From the NCBI GenBank assembly GCA_004213405.1, contig SGYR01000001.1, forward strand, positions 80,859-144,858: a DNA stretch of 64,000 nt, written 5' to 3'. The notes beneath the pieces are model-generated. The model was given only the letters and a program-made list of their open reading frames with translations, was not told the DNA's origin and searched no databases. Positions 3,629 through 62,773 of this stretch are shown here, piece after piece (position 1 is the stretch's first letter; every line of letters begins with the position of its first letter). Origin of the DNA: Candidatus Actinomarinales bacterium (GTDB lineage Bacteria; Actinomycetota; Acidimicrobiia; Actinomarinales; Actinomarinaceae). The position numbers were made by a program, and so were the translations under genes.

Positions 3629-3720
3629 GGAGGTGAATGAGCGCCTGGTGGGCTCCACAGTCTTCAAAACTGTTGAAAGGTGTAAAAGTCTTTGGCAGGT
3701 TCGATTCCTGTCCACCTCCG
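3629..3720 (+). tRNA. selC: tRNA-Sec (anticodon TCA)
   Basis: GGAGGTG...CACCTCC acceptor. Anticodon arm ACAGT-CTTCAAA-ACTGT, so anticodon TCA. Long variable arm (AAAGGT/GTCTTT stem). T arm GGCAGG-TTCGATT-CCTGTC. Acceptor plus T stems total 13 bp, as in bacterial tRNA-Sec. About 92 nt with no encoded CCA. Confidence 0.85.
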
Positions 3721-3755
3721 CTACTTTATAAGATATACATGTTTAATATAGAAAA

Positions 3756-28296: not shown

Positions 28297-29216
28297 AAAC
28301 TAAAAAATTCTCTAAGTTCTGTTAATAGATCTTCTTCGTGTGTCCATGGAACTGAGTGGCCAGCATCAGGAAAAGTTTTCACTTTTACTTCGTTTAATCT
28401 CTTAACTACATCATTTGAAGTTTCTTCTGGTACAAGTTTATCTCTACCCCCAGTAATTACTAGGGTCTCAGCTTCAATTTCTTGTATCCAAGACCTTGCA
28501 TCATAAGGAACAACAAATCTTCCCCCATCTGAGTAAATGAAGTCATCTTTTGATTTATGCAGATTATTCCATGCCCACTCTGTATATTCATCGTTAATAG
28601 AGTTTGATTTTTTTAAAAATGAAAACTTAGATTTTGGATTGAAATTAGGGAATAATCTTTCTCTTATTCTTACAAAACTAACAAATATTTTAAATGCTAC
28701 TTTATCGCTATACACAGCACCACCAAGCCAGCTAAAAGGTGTAATTAAAACTAATTTATTTACTAATGGCTTATTTTTTTTAGCAATTGACATTGCAACT
28801 GCACTTCCCATTGACCAACCAACAATATTGCAACTTGAAATGCCAAGCTCTTTTAGAATGCTAATAACAACATCGGCATTTTCATCTACGTCCCACCTGT
28901 CCCAACTAGCATCAGACTTTCCATGATTACGCATGTCTATAGCAACAAAAGAGGTTTCATTTTTAATTTTAGGCAATATTTTAAACCAGCTTCCTAGGGA
29001 GTCTGACCCCCAGCTGTGGAGAAATATTATAGGAGTTGTGCCGTCTATGATATTTTCTCTAATAAAGTATTCTTTTTCTCTTATGAATACAGTCCTGCCT
29101 GGAATTTTACTTGGGTGAATTTGTGTAGTTCCTGCAGATTGGCTCTTTTTGGTCTCAAGTAGGCTTTTTGTTACTGCAGTAAAAGCAAAAATTTTAGTTA
29201 GTGTTTTAATCATCAA
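28293..29216 (-). CDS. alpha/beta-fold hydrolase
   Basis: 307 aa. IIFLHSWGSD oxyanion region, GWSMGS nucleophile elbow, and C-terminal DAGHSVPWTH. The start (TTG 29216 or ATG 29213) overlaps the selD stop. Confidence 0.8.
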   Translation of the reverse strand: MMIKTLTKIFAFTAVTKSLLETKKSQSAGTTQIHPSKIPGRTVFIREKEYFIRENIIDGTTPIIFLHSWGSDSLGSWFKILPKIKNETSFVAIDMRNHGKSDASWDRWDVDENADVVISILKELGISSCNIVGWSMGSAVAMSIAKKNKPLVNKLVLITPFSWLGGAVYSDKVAFKIFVSFVRIRERLFPNFNPKSKFSFLKKSNSINDEYTEWAWNNLHKSKDDFIYSDGGRFVVPYDARSWIQEIEAETLVITGGRDKLVPEETSNDVVKRLNEVKVKTFPDAGHSVPWTHEEDLLTELREFFSL

Positions 29217-30241
29217 CTACTAATAATATTTATTTTTTGATTATATCTATCAGTTATATTTCCAATTTCTTCTACAAAAACCCCATATATTTTCTCAATT
29301 TCTATCAAATCTATATCTGTATCAGCAGGTACAGAAATTAATAATCCTCCACTGGTTTGAGCATCTGCTAATAAAAGTGCCTCGTCTTGATTCTCGAATG
29401 AGATAAAGTCTTTTACTGAGTCAAAATTTCTCTGACTTCCTGATGGATATATGCCACTATGAAAATAATTTTTTGCATACTCAATGAGTGGAACTTTATC
29501 GAATATCAAATTTGCTGATAATTTTTCATCAATTAACATCTCACTAAGGTGGCCAAGAAGTCCAAAACCAGTAACGTCTGTAATTGCGTTTGCATTGAGG
29601 TGCTTTGCAACTTCAAGTCCTGCATCATTTAAGGTTGTCATTACATTTGTTACCTGATTTATTGCTTCTTCATCGGCGACCCCTTTTTTTATTGCGGTTG
29701 AAATAATTCCAGAACCGAGAGGCTTGGTTAGAAAAAGTTTATCTCCATTTTTAATATTCGTTTTTGTATAGATTTTTTCATTAACGATACCTGTTACAGC
29801 AAAACCATATTTTGGTTCTTTGTCATCAATACTGTGCCCTCCAACAATATTGCAATTTGCAGATTTCATTACATCTGCACCTCCCTTAATAACATCTGAT
29901 AAAACGTCAAAACCTATGTCTTCTCTTGGCCAACTAACTAACTGTAGAGATGAAATAGGTGCACCTCCCATTGCATAAATATCAGATAATGCATTTGTTG
30001 CGGCAACCCTACCCCAGTCATAAGGGTTATCTAATATAGGAGTAAAAAAATCAACAGTTTGCACAATTTTCATGCTGTTTCCTAGATCAATAACTGCGCC
30101 GTCATCTGGATTTTCTAAACCAACTAAGACTTCAGAATTGTTTGAATTATTTTGTTTTGATTGCTTCAGAACCTGAGCAAGCTCTCCTTGGGAGAGTTTA
30201 CATGCTCAACCTGAGCCATGAGAATACTCTGTGAGTCTCAC
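29213..30241 (-). CDS. selD: selenide, water dikinase (selenophosphate synthetase), Sec-containing form; UGA at 30208..30206 read as selenocysteine
   Basis: The track lists only 29213..30073. The same frame extends upstream through one TGA: (GTG)RLTEYSHGSGUACKLSQGELAQVL...GLENPDDGAVIDLGNS-MKIVQTVDFFTP... The U falls where E. coli SelD has Cys17 (SHGAGCGCK), and Lys20 is conserved. A strong SD (AAAGGGGGG) precedes GTG 30241. Total 342 codons. Confidence 0.9.
30174..30208 (-). promoter_or_regulatory. candidate SECIS hairpin starting at the selD UGA
   Basis: mRNA UGAGCA-UGUAAA-CUCUCC-CAA-GGAGAG-CU-UGCUCA. The outer 6-bp stem includes the UGA, and there is an inner 6-bp stem. I read both complementary arms directly from the sequence. 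Confidence 0.55.
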
Positions 30242-57143: not shown

Positions 57144-58364
57144 ATGAATAATTTATCAACCTCTGAACTCTCGTCCCTTGCAATAATTTTTGGGATTTTA
57201 ATCATTACTTATTTTGTATTAAGAAGCATCCTCTTTCCTACTTTAAAAAAAATAGCAAAAAGAACATCAACATTTATTGATGATTTATTTCTAGAAAAAA
57301 AATTTCTGAATCGACTTTCATATGTTCTAGTAATTATAGTTTTTACCTTTTTGACTTCATCTCCTAGTTTTAATCTTGAAATATTTTCAAATCCAATAAT
57401 TTCTAGACTTCTTGATTCATTACTGACTTTATTTGTCGGTCTTACCATTCTTGAAATGCTCACTGTATTCAATAAAGTCTCTGAAAATATAGATGTATTA
57501 AAAAATAAACCTATCAAAGGATATATTCAGATAATAAAAATAATTATCGCATCATTCATCGCAATAATTATTTTTGCAATAATTACTGGTCAATCAGTGG
57601 CTTATTACATAAGTGGTCTTGGAGCTTTGACCGCAGTATTGTTGTTAGTCTTTCAAGATACAATTCTTTCTTTTGTGGCATCAGTCCAAATTGGTCAAAA
57701 TGACATAATTAAAATTGGTGACTGGATAGAGGTTCCCGAGTTTGGTGCAGATGGAGATGTTGTAGATATAGCCCTTCACACTGTAAAAGTACAAAATTGG
57801 GACAAAACAATTACAACAATACCTACATCAAAAATTGTTAATACTTCTGTAAAAAACTGGAGGGCAATGTCTGAGTATGGAGGGAGGAGGATAAAAAGGT
57901 CAATATTAATTGATATTTCTAGTATCAAGTTTTTAACTGCAGAAGAAACGGTCGAACTTCAAAAGCTTTCACCAATTAAGAGCTATATTTCAGAAAAAAA
58001 CGAGGAGTTAGAAGAGTTTAATAAATTAAACAGTGAGTCTTCTAATCAATTAGAAACTAGGAGATTAACAAATATCGGAACCTATAGAGCGTATGTTGAG
58101 AACTATTTGAAACAAAGTCAAAATTTAAACACTGACACCATGACTTTTTTAGTTCGTCAATTACCCTCTTCTCCTGAAGGAGTGCCTATAGAAATATATA
58201 CATTTACGAATACAACAGAGTGGGTTGCTTATGAAAAAATACAATCAGACATTTTTGATCACTTATTTGCAATTCTTCCAAAGTTTGGATTACGGGTTTT
58301 CCAAAGTGGTGTGATAGAGGCTGTGGCTATGAAAAACTTACCATTTAATCAACTGGACGAATAA
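57144..58364 (+). CDS. mechanosensitive ion channel (MscS family)
   Basis: 406 aa. TM3-beta domain junction (LLLVFQDTILSFVASVQIGQNDIIKIGDWIEV...GDVVDIALHTVKVQNWDKTITTIPTS). Confidence 0.85.
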   Translation: MNNLSTSELSSLAIIFGILIITYFVLRSILFPTLKKIAKRTSTFIDDLFLEKKFLNRLSYVLVIIVFTFLTSSPSFNLEIFSNPIISRLLDSLLTLFVGLTILEMLTVFNKVSENIDVLKNKPIKGYIQIIKIIIASFIAIIIFAIITGQSVAYYISGLGALTAVLLLVFQDTILSFVASVQIGQNDIIKIGDWIEVPEFGADGDVVDIALHTVKVQNWDKTITTIPTSKIVNTSVKNWRAMSEYGGRRIKRSILIDISSIKFLTAEETVELQKLSPIKSYISEKNEELEEFNKLNSESSNQLETRRLTNIGTYRAYVENYLKQSQNLNTDTMTFLVRQLPSSPEGVPIEIYTFTNTTEWVAYEKIQSDIFDHLFAILPKFGLRVFQSGVIEAVAMKNLPFNQLDE

Positions 58365-59832
58365 ATCTTCTAGCAAACGTAAGAGTTCCAAATATTATAA
58401 AAATATAATTTAAATAATTTCCATATTTGCTGTACGGAGTTTCTGTTTTTCTTACCTCAAGTTTTTCATTTAATGTTGTTGTTTCAAATAATTCAGTTTT
58501 AGAAATAACTTTTCCATTGTGATCTATGAACGCTGATTTACCAGTAATTGCTGCATGTACAATTGGTCTGTCGTTTGAAATTGCATTTGCCCTGGACATT
58601 AATATAAATTGGTCCGACATCCCGCTTTCTCCATAGCTTGCTTGGTTAGTAAGGATTACAACTAACTCTGCACCATCCAAGACACTGTTTCTGATGTATC
58701 TTTGGAAAGACCCTTCAAATGAAATAACAGTTGATATTTTTGTATTATTAACCATAAATATTTTTTGACCATCTCCCCTAATCATGTCACGAGGAACTAG
58801 TGCTAGTGGTGGAATCCAATCTAAATATTTTCTAAAAGGGATATATTCTCCAAATGGCACTGGATGCTGTTTTAAATATTGATCTACAACCTCTCCTTTT
58901 CTATTAATAAAGATTCCATAATTTTCGAAATATTCTTTTTGTACAGGTCTGTCTCCCCCAATTAAAAAATATGAATCTAATCTCAAAGCTTGGGTAGAAA
59001 CATCATTTTGAACTCTACTATGTACTCCTGGATCATTGTTAAATCCAGTTGAGCTCTCAGGCCAAACTACTAAATCAAAATTCCCTTCGAGAGATTGTGT
59101 TTGAGCTAAATGGCTATCATAAATTTTTTGCCTTTCATTGCTGCATCTGTTTTTTGCACCAGGACAAGGACTGTTTCCTTGAACGATTGTAATATTGAGT
59201 TCTGATGTTTCTAACTGAGTGTACTGATAGTCATTAACAACATAATTTGAAATGAATATTGTGAAAATTATTAATAAAAATATGCTGTAATCCTTTAAGT
59301 AATTTTTTGGTTTGCTTTTTGAAAAAACACCAAGTGCAATTACTAAAGGAAGAGATTGTAATAAAAGCGAAGATCCCGTTGGTCCAAAGTTTCTGAATAT
59401 CAAAGGTACTGCAAAAAATAATGGGCTATCTATGGGGCCTGTCAGTAAAACTGTTGATGGAAAACCCCAAGGAAATCCTCCAAAAGGAAAATATGCTCTG
59501 ATCAAATCGAAGACTGCTAACGCTGCCAACAATACATAGAAATTATTTCCAGATTTTGTATTTAGATAAGAAAATAATTTTGAGAATACTCCATACATTA
59601 ACCCCATTAAAAATGTCAACGGTATCCAAGCTTCCAGTCCTATTGATTGAATTCCTAATAGAATCACGCCGTAAGCAACACACCCAAAGATAAACCCTGG
59701 CAGAAAAGATTTTTTACTTGAAAGCAATGAATAATAAAAAAGATAAAGTGCAGGAAATATTAAATACCAAAAATCATAAGGAGGGAAACTTAAGAAGTAG
59801 AGCAAGCCGGCAATAATGGCGTTCATAAACAT
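58345..59832 (-). CDS. lnt: apolipoprotein N-acyltransferase
   Basis: 495 aa. N-terminal multi-TM domain (LSFPPYDFW), followed by a CN-hydrolase domain (VVWPES..., SFEG). Confidence 0.85.
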   Translation of the reverse strand: MFMNAIIAGLLYFLSFPPYDFWYLIFPALYLFYYSLLSSKKSFLPGFIFGCVAYGVILLGIQSIGLEAWIPLTFLMGLMYGVFSKLFSYLNTKSGNNFYVLLAALAVFDLIRAYFPFGGFPWGFPSTVLLTGPIDSPLFFAVPLIFRNFGPTGSSLLLQSLPLVIALGVFSKSKPKNYLKDYSIFLLIIFTIFISNYVVNDYQYTQLETSELNITIVQGNSPCPGAKNRCSNERQKIYDSHLAQTQSLEGNFDLVVWPESSTGFNNDPGVHSRVQNDVSTQALRLDSYFLIGGDRPVQKEYFENYGIFINRKGEVVDQYLKQHPVPFGEYIPFRKYLDWIPPLALVPRDMIRGDGQKIFMVNNTKISTVISFEGSFQRYIRNSVLDGAELVVILTNQASYGESGMSDQFILMSRANAISNDRPIVHAAITGKSAFIDHNGKVISKTELFETTTLNEKLEVRKTETPYSKYGNYLNYIFIIFGTLTFARRFIRPVD

Positions 59833-59869
59833 ATGCTTACATGTTAATAATCCCCCTAGTTGAAATAAA

Positions 59870-60604
59870 CTAATTTATGTTTCTCAAAATAACATACAGC
59901 CCAGAAATAATGGAAAAATAAGTTACTGACTGGGCAATGAAACTGTCTGAGACTTTTGAGAAAAGCGAGCTAGAAACTCTAATGCCTACCAAAACAACTG
60001 GAAGAAATAACATAAATAAAAGTAGGTGGTCAATATAAAGATTGCCACTTAGAATTAAAAGAGACAATGTAATCAAAATGCCTATGCTAAATACACTATT
60101 GAGAGAAGGTCTAAATTCCTGAGATTTAGTGTTCCTATAAAGCAAAGCTACAGGAGGACCACCAATGGCTGCAATCATCCCAAAAATACCTGAAAAAGTA
60201 CCTGCAAAAAAGGAATTCAAAGTATTTCTGTTAATTTCCCACCCAAAAAAAGAGCCTGCACCTGCTATAAAAACAATAAGTCCAACAGAGATTGATAAAT
60301 ATTTTTCGGATAAGTTTAATAATAATAAGAGTCCAATTGGTCCTCCTATTAATCGGCCTAAAATAAGTGGCTTGACTTTAGATAAATCAACTTCGTCTTT
60401 TTCTCGGTAAAAAACTCTTAAAGCAAGTGGCAAACCAAGTAACGCGAGCAGTTGAGGCACAAGACTAGGCTCAATTTGAACAATTATTGGTGAAGCAACA
60501 ACAGCAAATCCAAAACCCAAAACGCCTTGAACGGCAGAGCCAATAAAAAGTAATATTGCAATAAAAATTACTTCAAATAGCGTTAAGTCAAACGGTAGAT
60601 TCAA
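59870..60604 (-). CDS. TauE/SafE-family (DUF81) anion permease
   Basis: 244 aa. Typical LLFIGSAVQGVLGFGFAVVASPI N-terminus and an internal duplication. Its TTG start overlaps the stop of the selenoprotein gene (TTGA). Confidence 0.8.
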   Translation of the reverse strand: MNLPFDLTLFEVIFIAILLFIGSAVQGVLGFGFAVVASPIIVQIEPSLVPQLLALLGLPLALRVFYREKDEVDLSKVKPLILGRLIGGPIGLLLLLNLSEKYLSISVGLIVFIAGAGSFFGWEINRNTLNSFFAGTFSGIFGMIAAIGGPPVALLYRNTKSQEFRPSLNSVFSIGILITLSLLILSGNLYIDHLLLFMLFLPVVLVGIRVSSSLFSKVSDSFIAQSVTYFSIISGLYVILRNIN

Positions 60605-60837
60605 CCAAGATCTTCTTCAATTAATTTAAGAATTTCTCCATCTTCTGAGTGTCTTCCAAGTTCTTTTTTTGAAAATAATAATTTTTCATTTAAATGAAAT
60701 TCAAATACTCCACCACCGCTTGGAATTAGTTGAATGTTCGTAACTTTGTTACCGTAAACTTCTAAGATATCTTCAATCGTGCCAACTGCACGAGGTGTGT
60801 AGTTTCAAACTACACAAAATTCAAGTTTGATTTCCAT
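60601..60837 (-). CDS. SelW-like / Rdx-family selenoprotein (CxxU redox motif); UGA at 60807..60805 read as selenocysteine
   Basis: Absent from the ORF track because of the in-frame TGA. My translation is MEIKLEFCVVUNYTPRAVGTIEDILEVYGNKVTNIQLIPSGGGVFEFHLNEKLLFSKKELGRHSEDGEILKLIEEDLG*. It fits the Rdx pattern (IEYC..U....RA...L......V.LIP..GG.FEV...G.L..SK...GR.PE) with U in the CxxU position. The 237-nt span is exactly in frame. Confidence 0.85.
60778..60816 (-). promoter_or_regulatory. candidate SECIS structures at the SelW-like UGA
   Basis: Two structures. (1) A perfect 9-bp palindrome UGUGUAGUU-UGA-AACUACACA with the UGA as its loop (60796..60816). (2) A hairpin U-CGUGC-AGUUG-GCACG-A that begins after an 11-nt spacer downstream of the UGA (60778..60792). 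Confidence 0.5.
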
Positions 60838-60874
60838 AACTAAATACTATCATATAAAAAGTTAAAGGAGTTGA

Positions 60875-62773
60875 GTGTACAACTATTCAGATATATCTTT
60901 AGGAAAATTAGAAGAAGACTTAAAAAATACAATCGAAGAATGTAAAGCTTTGGTTAGTAATATTAAATCTTCTGAAAATATCGATTTATCGAATTTTAAT
61001 GAACTGGAGAGTACAATTTATGACCTTTCTGGACGCATTGCGTTTATGGGAGATGTACATCCAGATGAAAAAATAAGAAATTTTGGAAATGAAGCAGATT
61101 CAAAAATACAAAATCTTGCACTTGAAATATTTAAAGATCAAGGTCTATACGAAAAGTTTAAAGAAATAGAAACTAAAAATTTAGATGAAGAATCGAAAAC
61201 ATTTTATAGAGATTTAGAAATTGACTTCAAAGATGCAGGACATGGTCTATCAGGTGAAAAAAAGGATAGACTCACAGAAATCGAAAAAAAGCTTATAGAT
61301 CTCAGCATTTCTTTTTCAGAAAATATTGCAAAGGACAAAACTGAAGTTATGTTTTTGGAAGATGAACTAAAGGGTCTGAGTCAAAACGAACTTAAAAACT
61401 TGAAGAAAAATAATGATAGTTTTGTTATAACGATGGCATATCCAGACATCAATGCTGTTATGGAAAACTGCAGTGTGAGAACGACTAGAGAAATTGTTTG
61501 GAAAGCTTTTAACAATCGAGCTGTAAAAGAAAATAGTCCGATTCTTGAAGAAGCTGTTCAACTAAGAAATGAAAAAGCTTTGTTGTTTGGATTTAAAACT
61601 TGGGCTGAATATAGATTACAGAATAGGATGGCAAAGTCACCGAAAAATGTAACGTCAATGTATGAAAGCTTGATTCCAAAATTACAAAAAGCAGCTGAAG
61701 TAGAAAAAAGTGAACTTGCTATAGATAACATCGAAATTTCTGATATAACACCTTGGGATATACGTTATTTTATTTCAAAAGAAAGAAGTAAAGTAAGCAA
61801 TATTGAGAATAGTGAATTAAAAAAATTCTTTTACATACATGATGTGAAAACTGAAATGTTTAAAGTTTGTGAAGAAGTATTTGATTTGCATATAAAACCT
61901 GAATCGAATGAAACTGCATGGCATGAAGATGTTGAGCTTTGGTCTTTATGGGAAAAAAATGGTCAACAATTAGCATATTTTTATTTAGACCTTTATCCAA
62001 GAGAAGGAAAATTTACACACGCTGCAGTATTCGATATATCTTCTGGTGGATCTAGCAGACAAGAGTTGCCAATATGCTCAATGGTTGCAAATTTCCCAAA
62101 CCCGAACGCAGGAGATGGGTTAATGACTTTCGATGAAGTTGAAACTCTTTTTCACGAATTTGGCCATGTTCTACACAACGGAATTGGAAAATCAAAATAT
62201 ACGAGATTTGTTGGTGCAAACTGTGAATGGGACTTCGTCGAAGCACCAAGTCAAATTATGGAGCATTGGGTATGGAAAGTAGAATGTATGAAAAGAATTT
62301 CAACGCATATTGAATCTGGTGAATCACTGTCTGAAGAAATATGTGAAAAATTAAATAAATCAAAAAATATTGGAGTTAGTTTACTTACACTCAGGCAGGT
62401 TTCATTTAGTCTTGCAGATCAGCATTTACATGGTGAAAACTTTAAAGACAGCCTTTTAGAAATAGAACATGCAGCTCAAAAAGTTACAACAATAACATAT
62501 CCGAAAGATATCAATCATCTAGCAGCTTTTGGACATTTACTAGGTGGGTATGATGCAGCTTATTATGGTTATTTGTGGGCTGAAATAATCGGTGATGACT
62601 TGTTTAGTAGATTTGAAAATGAAGGGGTATTGTCTAGTTCTGTTGGTGTTGACTATAAAAATAAAATTCTAAAGCCTGGAGGAACTGTACCTGCTGAAAA
62701 CATGGTTCAGGACTTTTTAGGTAGAAAATGGAATGATGAGGCCTTTTTTTCCCAAAAAAACTTGTCAAAATAA
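60875..62773 (+). CDS. M3-family metallopeptidase (oligopeptidase A / thimet / Dcp-like)
   Basis: 632 aa. HEFGHVLH zinc motif with a downstream E (EAPSQIMEHW). GTG start preceded by an AAAGGAG SD. Confidence 0.9.
   Translation: MYNYSDISLGKLEEDLKNTIEECKALVSNIKSSENIDLSNFNELESTIYDLSGRIAFMGDVHPDEKIRNFGNEADSKIQNLALEIFKDQGLYEKFKEIETKNLDEESKTFYRDLEIDFKDAGHGLSGEKKDRLTEIEKKLIDLSISFSENIAKDKTEVMFLEDELKGLSQNELKNLKKNNDSFVITMAYPDINAVMENCSVRTTREIVWKAFNNRAVKENSPILEEAVQLRNEKALLFGFKTWAEYRLQNRMAKSPKNVTSMYESLIPKLQKAAEVEKSELAIDNIEISDITPWDIRYFISKERSKVSNIENSELKKFFYIHDVKTEMFKVCEEVFDLHIKPESNETAWHEDVELWSLWEKNGQQLAYFYLDLYPREGKFTHAAVFDISSGGSSRQELPICSMVANFPNPNAGDGLMTFDEVETLFHEFGHVLHNGIGKSKYTRFVGANCEWDFVEAPSQIMEHWVWKVECMKRISTHIESGESLSEEICEKLNKSKNIGVSLLTLRQVSFSLADQHLHGENFKDSLLEIEHAAQKVTTITYPKDINHLAAFGHLLGGYDAAYYGYLWAEIIGDDLFSRFENEGVLSSSVGVDYKNKILKPGGTVPAENMVQDFLGRKWNDEAFFSQKNLSK

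Follow-up and report, generated by a model that had tools for sequence, protein, structure and literature searches.

Does a selenoprotein gene that shares its last bases with the start of a permease gene mark a dedicated two-protein system, or does it reflect the tight packing of the genome in which it lies? We examined this question in a 64,000-nucleotide stretch of Candidatus Actinomarinales bacterium (assembly GCA_004213405.1, contig SGYR01000001.1, positions 80,859 to 144,858 of the forward strand), referred to below as the window and numbered from its first letter. On the minus strand of the window, the gene for an Rdx/SelW-like selenoprotein (60601..60837) runs into the gene for a TauE/SafE (TSUP, DUF81) family permease (59870..60604), which we call Rdx and TauE. 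The pair was found at every readable locus of the organism's genus, Ca. Actinomarina, and at none of the Rdx loci surveyed outside it. We consider it, with a probability of roughly 60%, to be an ordinary lineage-specific compact operon rather than a dedicated two-protein system.

Two genes sharing a TTGA junction

The Rdx open reading frame (ORF) comprises 78 codons, from an ATG at 60837..60835 to a TGA at 60603..60601. Its translation begins MEIKLEFCVVUNYTPRAVG..., placing the redox motif CVVU (C8-V-V-U11) near the N-terminus. With Cys in place of selenocysteine (Sec), the protein matched Pfam PF10262 (E 6.5e-16, 58.7 bits; cut-off 22.6) and NCBIfam TIGR02174 CXXU_selWTH (44.3 bits; cut-off 34.2). 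It was also similar in sequence to the solved SelW-related proteins 3dex, 2fa8, and 2p0g (E 2e-7 to 2e-4), which have Cys at the position of U11.

The TauE ORF extends from a TTG at 60604..60602 to a TAG at 59872..59870 and encodes 244 amino acids (aa), none of them cysteine. It matched Pfam PF01925 over positions 2-236 of the 237 in the profile (E 1.8e-21, 77.3 bits; cut-off 32.6), and a crude hydropathy scan, set against the roughly 8 membrane segments in two halves expected of the family, gave hydrophobic stretches over the whole length, with segments merging. This full-length match upholds the assignment to the TauE/SafE family made in a preliminary description of the locus. The junction itself consists of four bases common to both genes (TTGA, 60601..60604, minus strand), in which the TauE start overlaps the Rdx stop, and the overlap reported earlier between the SelW-like TGA and the TTG of a 244-aa permease proved exact to the base. 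This TTG is the sole usable start of TauE, because the frame is closed by a TGA five codons upstream, and the first further ATG, GTG, or TTG in frame is codon 29, within the first conserved membrane segment. Public gene calls of TauE homologues also give 244 aa and the same start as in the window.

Whether there is a protein pair at all depends on how the in-frame TGA at Rdx codon 11 (60805..60807, minus strand) is read. This codon aligned with the Cys of homologues, namely one from Acidimicrobiia (L073, with CVPC) and 62 from Pseudomonadota, and it was TGA in 57 Actinomarina genomes and in nearly all other Acidimicrobiia matches. Starting 12 nucleotides (nt) after the UGA, a bacterial hairpin of the selenocysteine insertion sequence (SECIS) type was identified at 60777..60793 (minus strand), with a stem of 6 base pairs (bp) and a 5-nt loop. 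In a set of 30 distinct sequences, drawn from the genus as well as from other Acidimicrobiia, 180 of 180 base-pair cells of this helix (+13 to +29 after the UGA) were paired, with compensatory changes in two pairs (U-A, C-G, and G-C at the closing pair) and an invariant G-U in the loop. RNAalifold predicted the same helix.

Sec machinery was also detected in the window, in the form of a tRNA-Sec with anticodon TCA (3629..3721, plus strand; Rfam RF01852, 75.4 bits; ARAGORN) and selD (29213..30241, minus strand; TIGR00476, 375 bits), which encodes a selenophosphate synthetase of 342 aa. The latter is itself a selenoprotein gene with a GTG start and one in-frame TGA, the Sec codon at 30208..30206 (MRLTEYSHGSGUACK...). 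Because the window contains tRNA-Sec and a selD with its own Sec codon, the SECIS helix covaries, and homologues carry Cys at codon 11, the sequences identify Rdx as a real selenoprotein. Together with the Pfam and TIGR02174 matches, these data agree with its earlier description as a genuine CxxU selenoprotein.

The opposing account, in which the UGA would end a 10-codon ORF or the gene would be a relic so that no protein pair exists, could draw on three observations: the full gene is missed by standard gene callers, selA and selB were not found in the window's assembly (602 kb, 70% complete), and a scan of the locus with Rfam, where bacterial SECIS elements are poorly covered, gave no SECIS family and no other credible match. 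The last of these says little, since Rfam holds few bacterial SECIS models. Against this account, the protein encoded by the full 78-codon frame is conserved in the genus and beyond it in other Acidimicrobiia, TGA taking the place of the Cys codon, and selA and selB are adjacent to each other in 13 of 15 genomes of the genus. Frame conservation, SECIS covariation, and the Sec machinery effectively refute it, and we regard it as highly improbable.

Several further observations concern Rdx and Sec decoding. Many database entries for the Rdx gene are 84 aa long, corresponding to the 78 codons, the read-through stop TGA, and five codons before a TAA, and are probably calls made under a TGA-sense code. 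For selD, the mechanical ORF list contains the downstream 286 codons only. A perfect 9-bp hairpin holding the UGA in its 3-nt loop (60796..60816, minus strand) is largely genus-specific, with 64.7% of its cells paired across the class versus 100% for the SECIS helix; among genus members, a G-C pair of this 9-bp hairpin is replaced by A-U through a compensatory change (TGTGTAG/CTACACA versus TGTATAG/CTATACA). Among the genus genomes, G018, a single 1.0-Mb contig, has Rdx with TGA, yet selA and selB were unmatched, and G017 has tRNA-Sec while selA, selB, Rdx, TauE, lnt, and the M3 peptidase gene are absent. These missing matches probably reflect gaps in assembly close to the hypervariable region that preprint 10.64898/2026.04.03.716425 describes.

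Taxonomic range of the pair and the Rdx-lnt slot

Within Ca. Actinomarina, the Rdx(TGA)-TauE pair was kept in all 43 readable loci (13 of 13 found via TauE and 30 of 30 via Rdx), with TauE identity falling to 57%. TTGA was invariant in the window and these 43 related loci, across 25 distinct junction variants. The next gene after TauE is lnt, encoding apolipoprotein N-acyltransferase (58345..59832, minus strand; TIGR00546, 178 bits; cut-off 133). It occupied this place in 42 of the 43 genus loci, that is, in all where the sequence extends, after a spacer of 37-60 nt. On the other side, an M3 oligopeptidase gene (60875..62773, plus strand; Pfam Peptidase_M3, E 4e-114) is divergent from Rdx across a 37-nt gap. 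The upstream neighbour of Rdx varies in the genus, and the M3 peptidase gene was found in about half of the loci.

The Rdx gene was present in 57 of 63 genus genomes. Four genomes without Rdx and TauE (G017, G049, G023, and G009) retained tRNA-Sec and were also without lnt and the M3 peptidase gene. What is missing or unassembled in them is a larger stretch, and the co-absence of Rdx and TauE is uninformative on the pair because lnt and the M3 peptidase gene are gone too. In a genome of the sister genus (G064), the contig ends inside lnt.

The survey outside the genus covered Acidimicrobiia and Pseudomonadota, and thus two phyla, together with one metagenome sample. TauE was sought in Rdx flanks of 1.5-2.5 kb with a home-made hidden Markov model built from close and distant TauE sequences, which detected a remote paralogue at E 1.9e-6. 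The Rdx gene was found in 66 other Acidimicrobiia genomes, almost always with TGA. A TauE neighbour occurred at none of 67 Rdx loci in these other Acidimicrobiia, at none of 63 Pseudomonadota loci (nearly all Cys forms), and on none of 80 metagenome contigs with Acidimicrobiia-type Rdx, giving 0 of 210 Rdx loci outside the genus. Pfam counts on the Rdx neighbours, taken for the top 25 families only, comprised amidohydrolase, IlvD, M3 peptidase, and others, and TauE was not among these 25.

The same result was obtained from the permease side. The nearest TauE relatives outside the genus, in Shewanella, Myxococcota, Rubrobacteraceae, and one JGI contig, were 33-40% identical and lay in unrelated contexts. 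Gene calls placed no Rdx beside any of these four, for three of which tblastn was also run on the DNA, and Rdx is absent from the entire Shewanella genome. A homologue search with the Rdx protein returned Actinomarina sequences only, and no description of such a pair emerged from the literature searched on SelW-like proteins together with TauE, on TauE and selenite, or on TSUP and thioredoxin. The preliminary description had called the pairing of TauE with a CxxU protein fixed and had named a lack of conservation beyond this genome as what would refute it. Conservation was indeed found throughout the genus (43/43), and at every level above the genus it was absent, as the 210 Rdx loci elsewhere show.

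The gene order in related genomes offers an explanation for this range. At least 13 genomes of other Acidimicrobiia carry lnt on the strand of Rdx, 2.6-3.5 kb downstream of it. Four of the Acidimicrobiia loci were fully read (L112, L113, L124, and L127); an amidohydrolase gene on the opposite strand adjoins Rdx in all four, and in two of them it is followed, still within the Rdx-lnt slot, by an inositol monophosphatase gene. Upstream of Rdx in these loci stands either IlvD or, in 2 genomes, a divergent M3 peptidase gene as in the window. From the Rdx and lnt coordinates compared across other Acidimicrobiia, we infer that a divergent M3 peptidase gene, Rdx, and a more distant lnt form the older frame, and that TauE in Actinomarina fills a slot held by other genes elsewhere. 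TauE would have come into the slot between Rdx and lnt, and genome streamlining would then have pressed both genes together.

This history bears directly on the proposal that the two proteins form a functional module. There, an oxyanion of selenium or sulfur (for example selenite or sulfite) would be moved by TauE and reduced or captured by the CxxU protein at the inner face of the membrane, and the overlap would enforce co-production. The proposal is consistent with the invariance of the pair and of TTGA at all 43 loci despite the divergence of TauE, and with the use of selenium by the organism (tRNA-Sec and selD in the window, selA and selB in 13 of 15 genus genomes). It also fits the report that Actinomarina has no assimilatory sulfate reduction (preprint 10.64898/2026.04.03.716425), no other selenium importer was identified in this analysis, and the arrangement is similar to that of the predicted YedE-YedF pair discussed below. 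Against the module stand its lack of recurrence at the 210 Rdx loci and at the four TauE relatives outside the genus, and the replacement by TauE of unrelated genes in the older frame. In addition, lnt, which has no obvious link to either function, is conserved beside TauE equally well.

The permease sequence argues against the module as well. Cysteine was absent from 79 of 83 Actinomarina-type TauE sequences, and the permease itself cannot be the thiol or selenol partner of Rdx for this reason; a thiol-selenol relay with TauE is thereby excluded. With no recurrence outside the genus, a cysteine-free permease, and a slot shared with other genes, the dedicated two-component unit for a sulfur or selenium oxyanion put forward earlier is unsupported, and we consider such a module improbable.

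Some observations weigh against the reading of a lineage-specific compact operon that we prefer. The range of taxa covered by the survey, the home-made model, and the limit of the Pfam counts to 25 families all leave room for Rdx-TauE pairs elsewhere. The persistence of the pair and its TTGA while TauE diverged to 57% identity is some evidence for selection on adjacency. Heavy, rapid shuffling of gene order between Actinomarina species, reported in preprint 10.64898/2026.04.03.716425 (section 18), would strengthen the case for a selected adjacency; the equally faithful TauE-lnt adjacency weakens it. Finally, a partnership that evolved in this lineage only would be compatible with the absence of the pair elsewhere, a possibility that we rate as low.

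Transcription and translation across the overlap

An extended -10-like box, TG-a-TAGTAT (60844..60852, minus strand), ends 6 nt before the Rdx ATG and is likely the promoter of a leaderless mRNA. The TANNNT hexamer at this spacing is kept in both upstream contexts of the genus. In the window as a whole, 15 of 54 genes had a TANNNT whose end lay exactly 6 nt upstream of the start codon, compared with about 2 at other spacings. This enrichment at one spacing suggests that leaderless transcription is common in the genome, and Rdx fits the pattern. Transcription of Rdx would accordingly start at or next to the A of its ATG.

TauE, by comparison, has no TANNNT box at the signature spacing and no Shine-Dalgarno (SD)-like 4-mer before its TTG. 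The missing SD means little on its own, because only 13 of 55 window genes had an SD match of a 4-mer or longer. No terminator-like site was found in 58200..61300, and there is no intergenic gap between the two overlapping genes. Since a promoter or ribosome-binding site for TauE alone would not fit into the junction, Rdx and TauE are likely co-transcribed, and translation of TauE is most likely coupled to that of Rdx, mainly by reinitiation at the overlap. Co-transcription with probable coupled translation had been proposed in the preliminary description, and it is a reasonable conclusion from the junction, the missing TauE signals, and the -10 box of Rdx.

Alternatively, a promoter within the Rdx coding sequence could serve TauE, which would initiate alone in AT-rich, unstructured mRNA, the overlap being a by-product of compaction. 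A sigma-70-like match (TTGAAT-18-TATTAT, 60704..60675, minus strand) does occur within the Rdx ORF, some 70 nt ahead of the TTG, and the low frequency of SD matches indicates that SD-independent initiation is normal here. However, promoter-like matches were no more frequent than expected by chance (12 found versus 12.5 expected in shuffled sequence), a 70-nt leader from this site would be unlike the dominant leaderless pattern, and TauE lacks the box at the signature spacing. We regard independent expression as unlikely, if still worth entertaining.

Under the compact-operon reading, a ribosome on the leaderless mRNA would read the 78 codons of Rdx, inserting Sec at UGA-11 with the aid of the hairpin 12 nt downstream and stopping at the second UGA. 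TauE would then be translated from the same mRNA, largely by termination-reinitiation at the UUG that overlaps this stop, as its lack of a -10 box and of an SD makes most likely. As a side effect, the frequency of Sec insertion at UGA-11 would cap the output of TauE, which would depend on this insertion and fall when selenium is scarce. The simplest reading is that the two products act independently of each other, Rdx as a cytoplasmic CxxU oxidoreductase of presumed thioredoxin fold and TauE as a putative TSUP-family anion permease; the two would lack a biochemical partnership.

The dependence on Sec insertion can also be turned into a function. Because ribosomes on a leaderless mRNA would reach the permease start only after decoding UGA-11 as Sec, the overlap could act as a selenium-gated switch invented in Actinomarina, through which TauE would be made in proportion to the supply of Sec-tRNA and, jointly with the CxxU protein, would act on an anion of selenium or sulfur. 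We think this quite improbable. For the oxyanion module discussed above, the same coupling would point in the wrong direction for uptake, since the importer would be made least at selenium scarcity.

How much weight the overlap itself can bear was judged from the other genes of the window. Overlaps were found in 13 of 39 same-strand neighbouring ORF pairs, and 6 of the 39 overlapped by exactly 4 nt; about 93% of the bases lie in ORFs. In a tightly packed 1-Mb genome where overlapping genes are routine, a 4-nt overlap is weak evidence of partnership, and this also counts against the module.

The flanks of the pair showed two further features. In the genus clade without the upstream M3 peptidase gene (loci of the L024-L033 type), a GAAAAAC-CTGCAA-GTTTTTC hairpin lies about 35 nt upstream of the Rdx ATG, ahead of the promoter box, and probably marks where the transcript of the upstream gene ends. 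At the other end, the TauE-lnt spacer contains a conserved TAACAT/TAAGAT -10-like box 8-10 nt before the lnt ATG, and lnt may have its own transcription start. An ATG-TAA mini-ORF with a GGGGGA box before lnt (59842..59837) was dropped as a candidate, as it is unconserved and reads ATATAA in other genomes.

Known systems and implications

We compared the locus with the known systems closest to it. Overlap of stop and start codons is a known arrangement for translational coupling, as at ATGA or TGATG junctions such as trpB-trpA in E. coli, and a selenoprotein gene can be the first cistron of an operon, as is fdnG in fdnGHI. The Rdx-TauE locus shares with the coupled pairs a four-base stop/start overlap and a downstream gene without its own ribosome-binding site, and with fdnGHI a UGA-Sec gene placed ahead of other cistrons. 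It differs from trpB-trpA-type pairs in that the start is UUG and the mRNA is probably leaderless, and coupling here is read from the junction.

A parallel to the proposed module is YedE-YedF, reportedly described by Lin et al. in 2015 as a predicted selenium-related membrane protein with a small redox protein. The link between the two is said to rest on their recurrence and on their co-occurrence with the selenium trait across many lineages. That system likewise places the gene of a permease-like membrane protein beside that of a small cytoplasmic protein with a redox motif, in selenium-using bacteria. The families differ, being Sulf_transp and TusA-like there versus TauE and Rdx here, and recurrence was sought for Rdx-TauE and was not found.

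As a member of the TauE/SafE (TSUP, TC 2.A.102, DUF81, YfcA-like) permeases, the window TauE is typical in its full-length PF01925 match, its length within the usual range of about 240-250 aa, and, as far as the crude scan shows, its several hydrophobic segments. It departs from them in the distance of its nearest relatives outside the genus, only 33-40% identical. No NCBIfam equivalog and no solved structure related by sequence was found for it. Sulfoacetaldehyde acetyltransferase (Xsc), which would give a source of sulfite, was not detected at the cut-off in 16 genus genomes, where matches near 315 bits fell far below the required 676. The KEGG entry K07090 is presumably this YfcA/TauE family. 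Papers give its KEGG name as 'uncharacterized protein'.

Among bacterial SelW-like (Rdx) selenoproteins, the window Rdx is unremarkable, with an N-terminal CxxU, about 78 aa, and a UGA followed by a short hairpin; apart from its place as the leading gene of an overlapping pair, nothing essential distinguishes it. In the GOS survey, no marine selenoprotein family was more abundant than the SelW-like one, with 427 selenoprotein sequences (PMC2398784). Preprint 10.64898/2026.04.03.716425 reports universal Sec machinery in Actinomarina and, as the commonest predicted selenoprotein, a protein of 78 aa left as 'uncharacterized' and unassigned to Rdx. We identify this protein as a member of the Rdx/SelW-like family, with a clear SECIS hairpin. 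The same preprint (section 19) lists a third selenoprotein group that 'matches K07090' in 49 genomes, with predictions mapped to gene calls by same-strand overlap. Because of this mapping, the group may consist of Rdx ORFs that were attributed to the TauE gene they overlap.

Were the two genes truly a system, one of the ocean's commonest bacteria would offer a first way into the function both of a poorly characterized permease family and of the marine selenoprotein family that is most abundant. On the compact-operon reading, the adjacency is a genus-level accident of compaction and so would give no basis for inferring the function of either protein. A by-product of the analysis concerns the genome itself, in which leaderless promoters whose -10 box ends 6 nt ahead of the start codon appear to be a strong feature.

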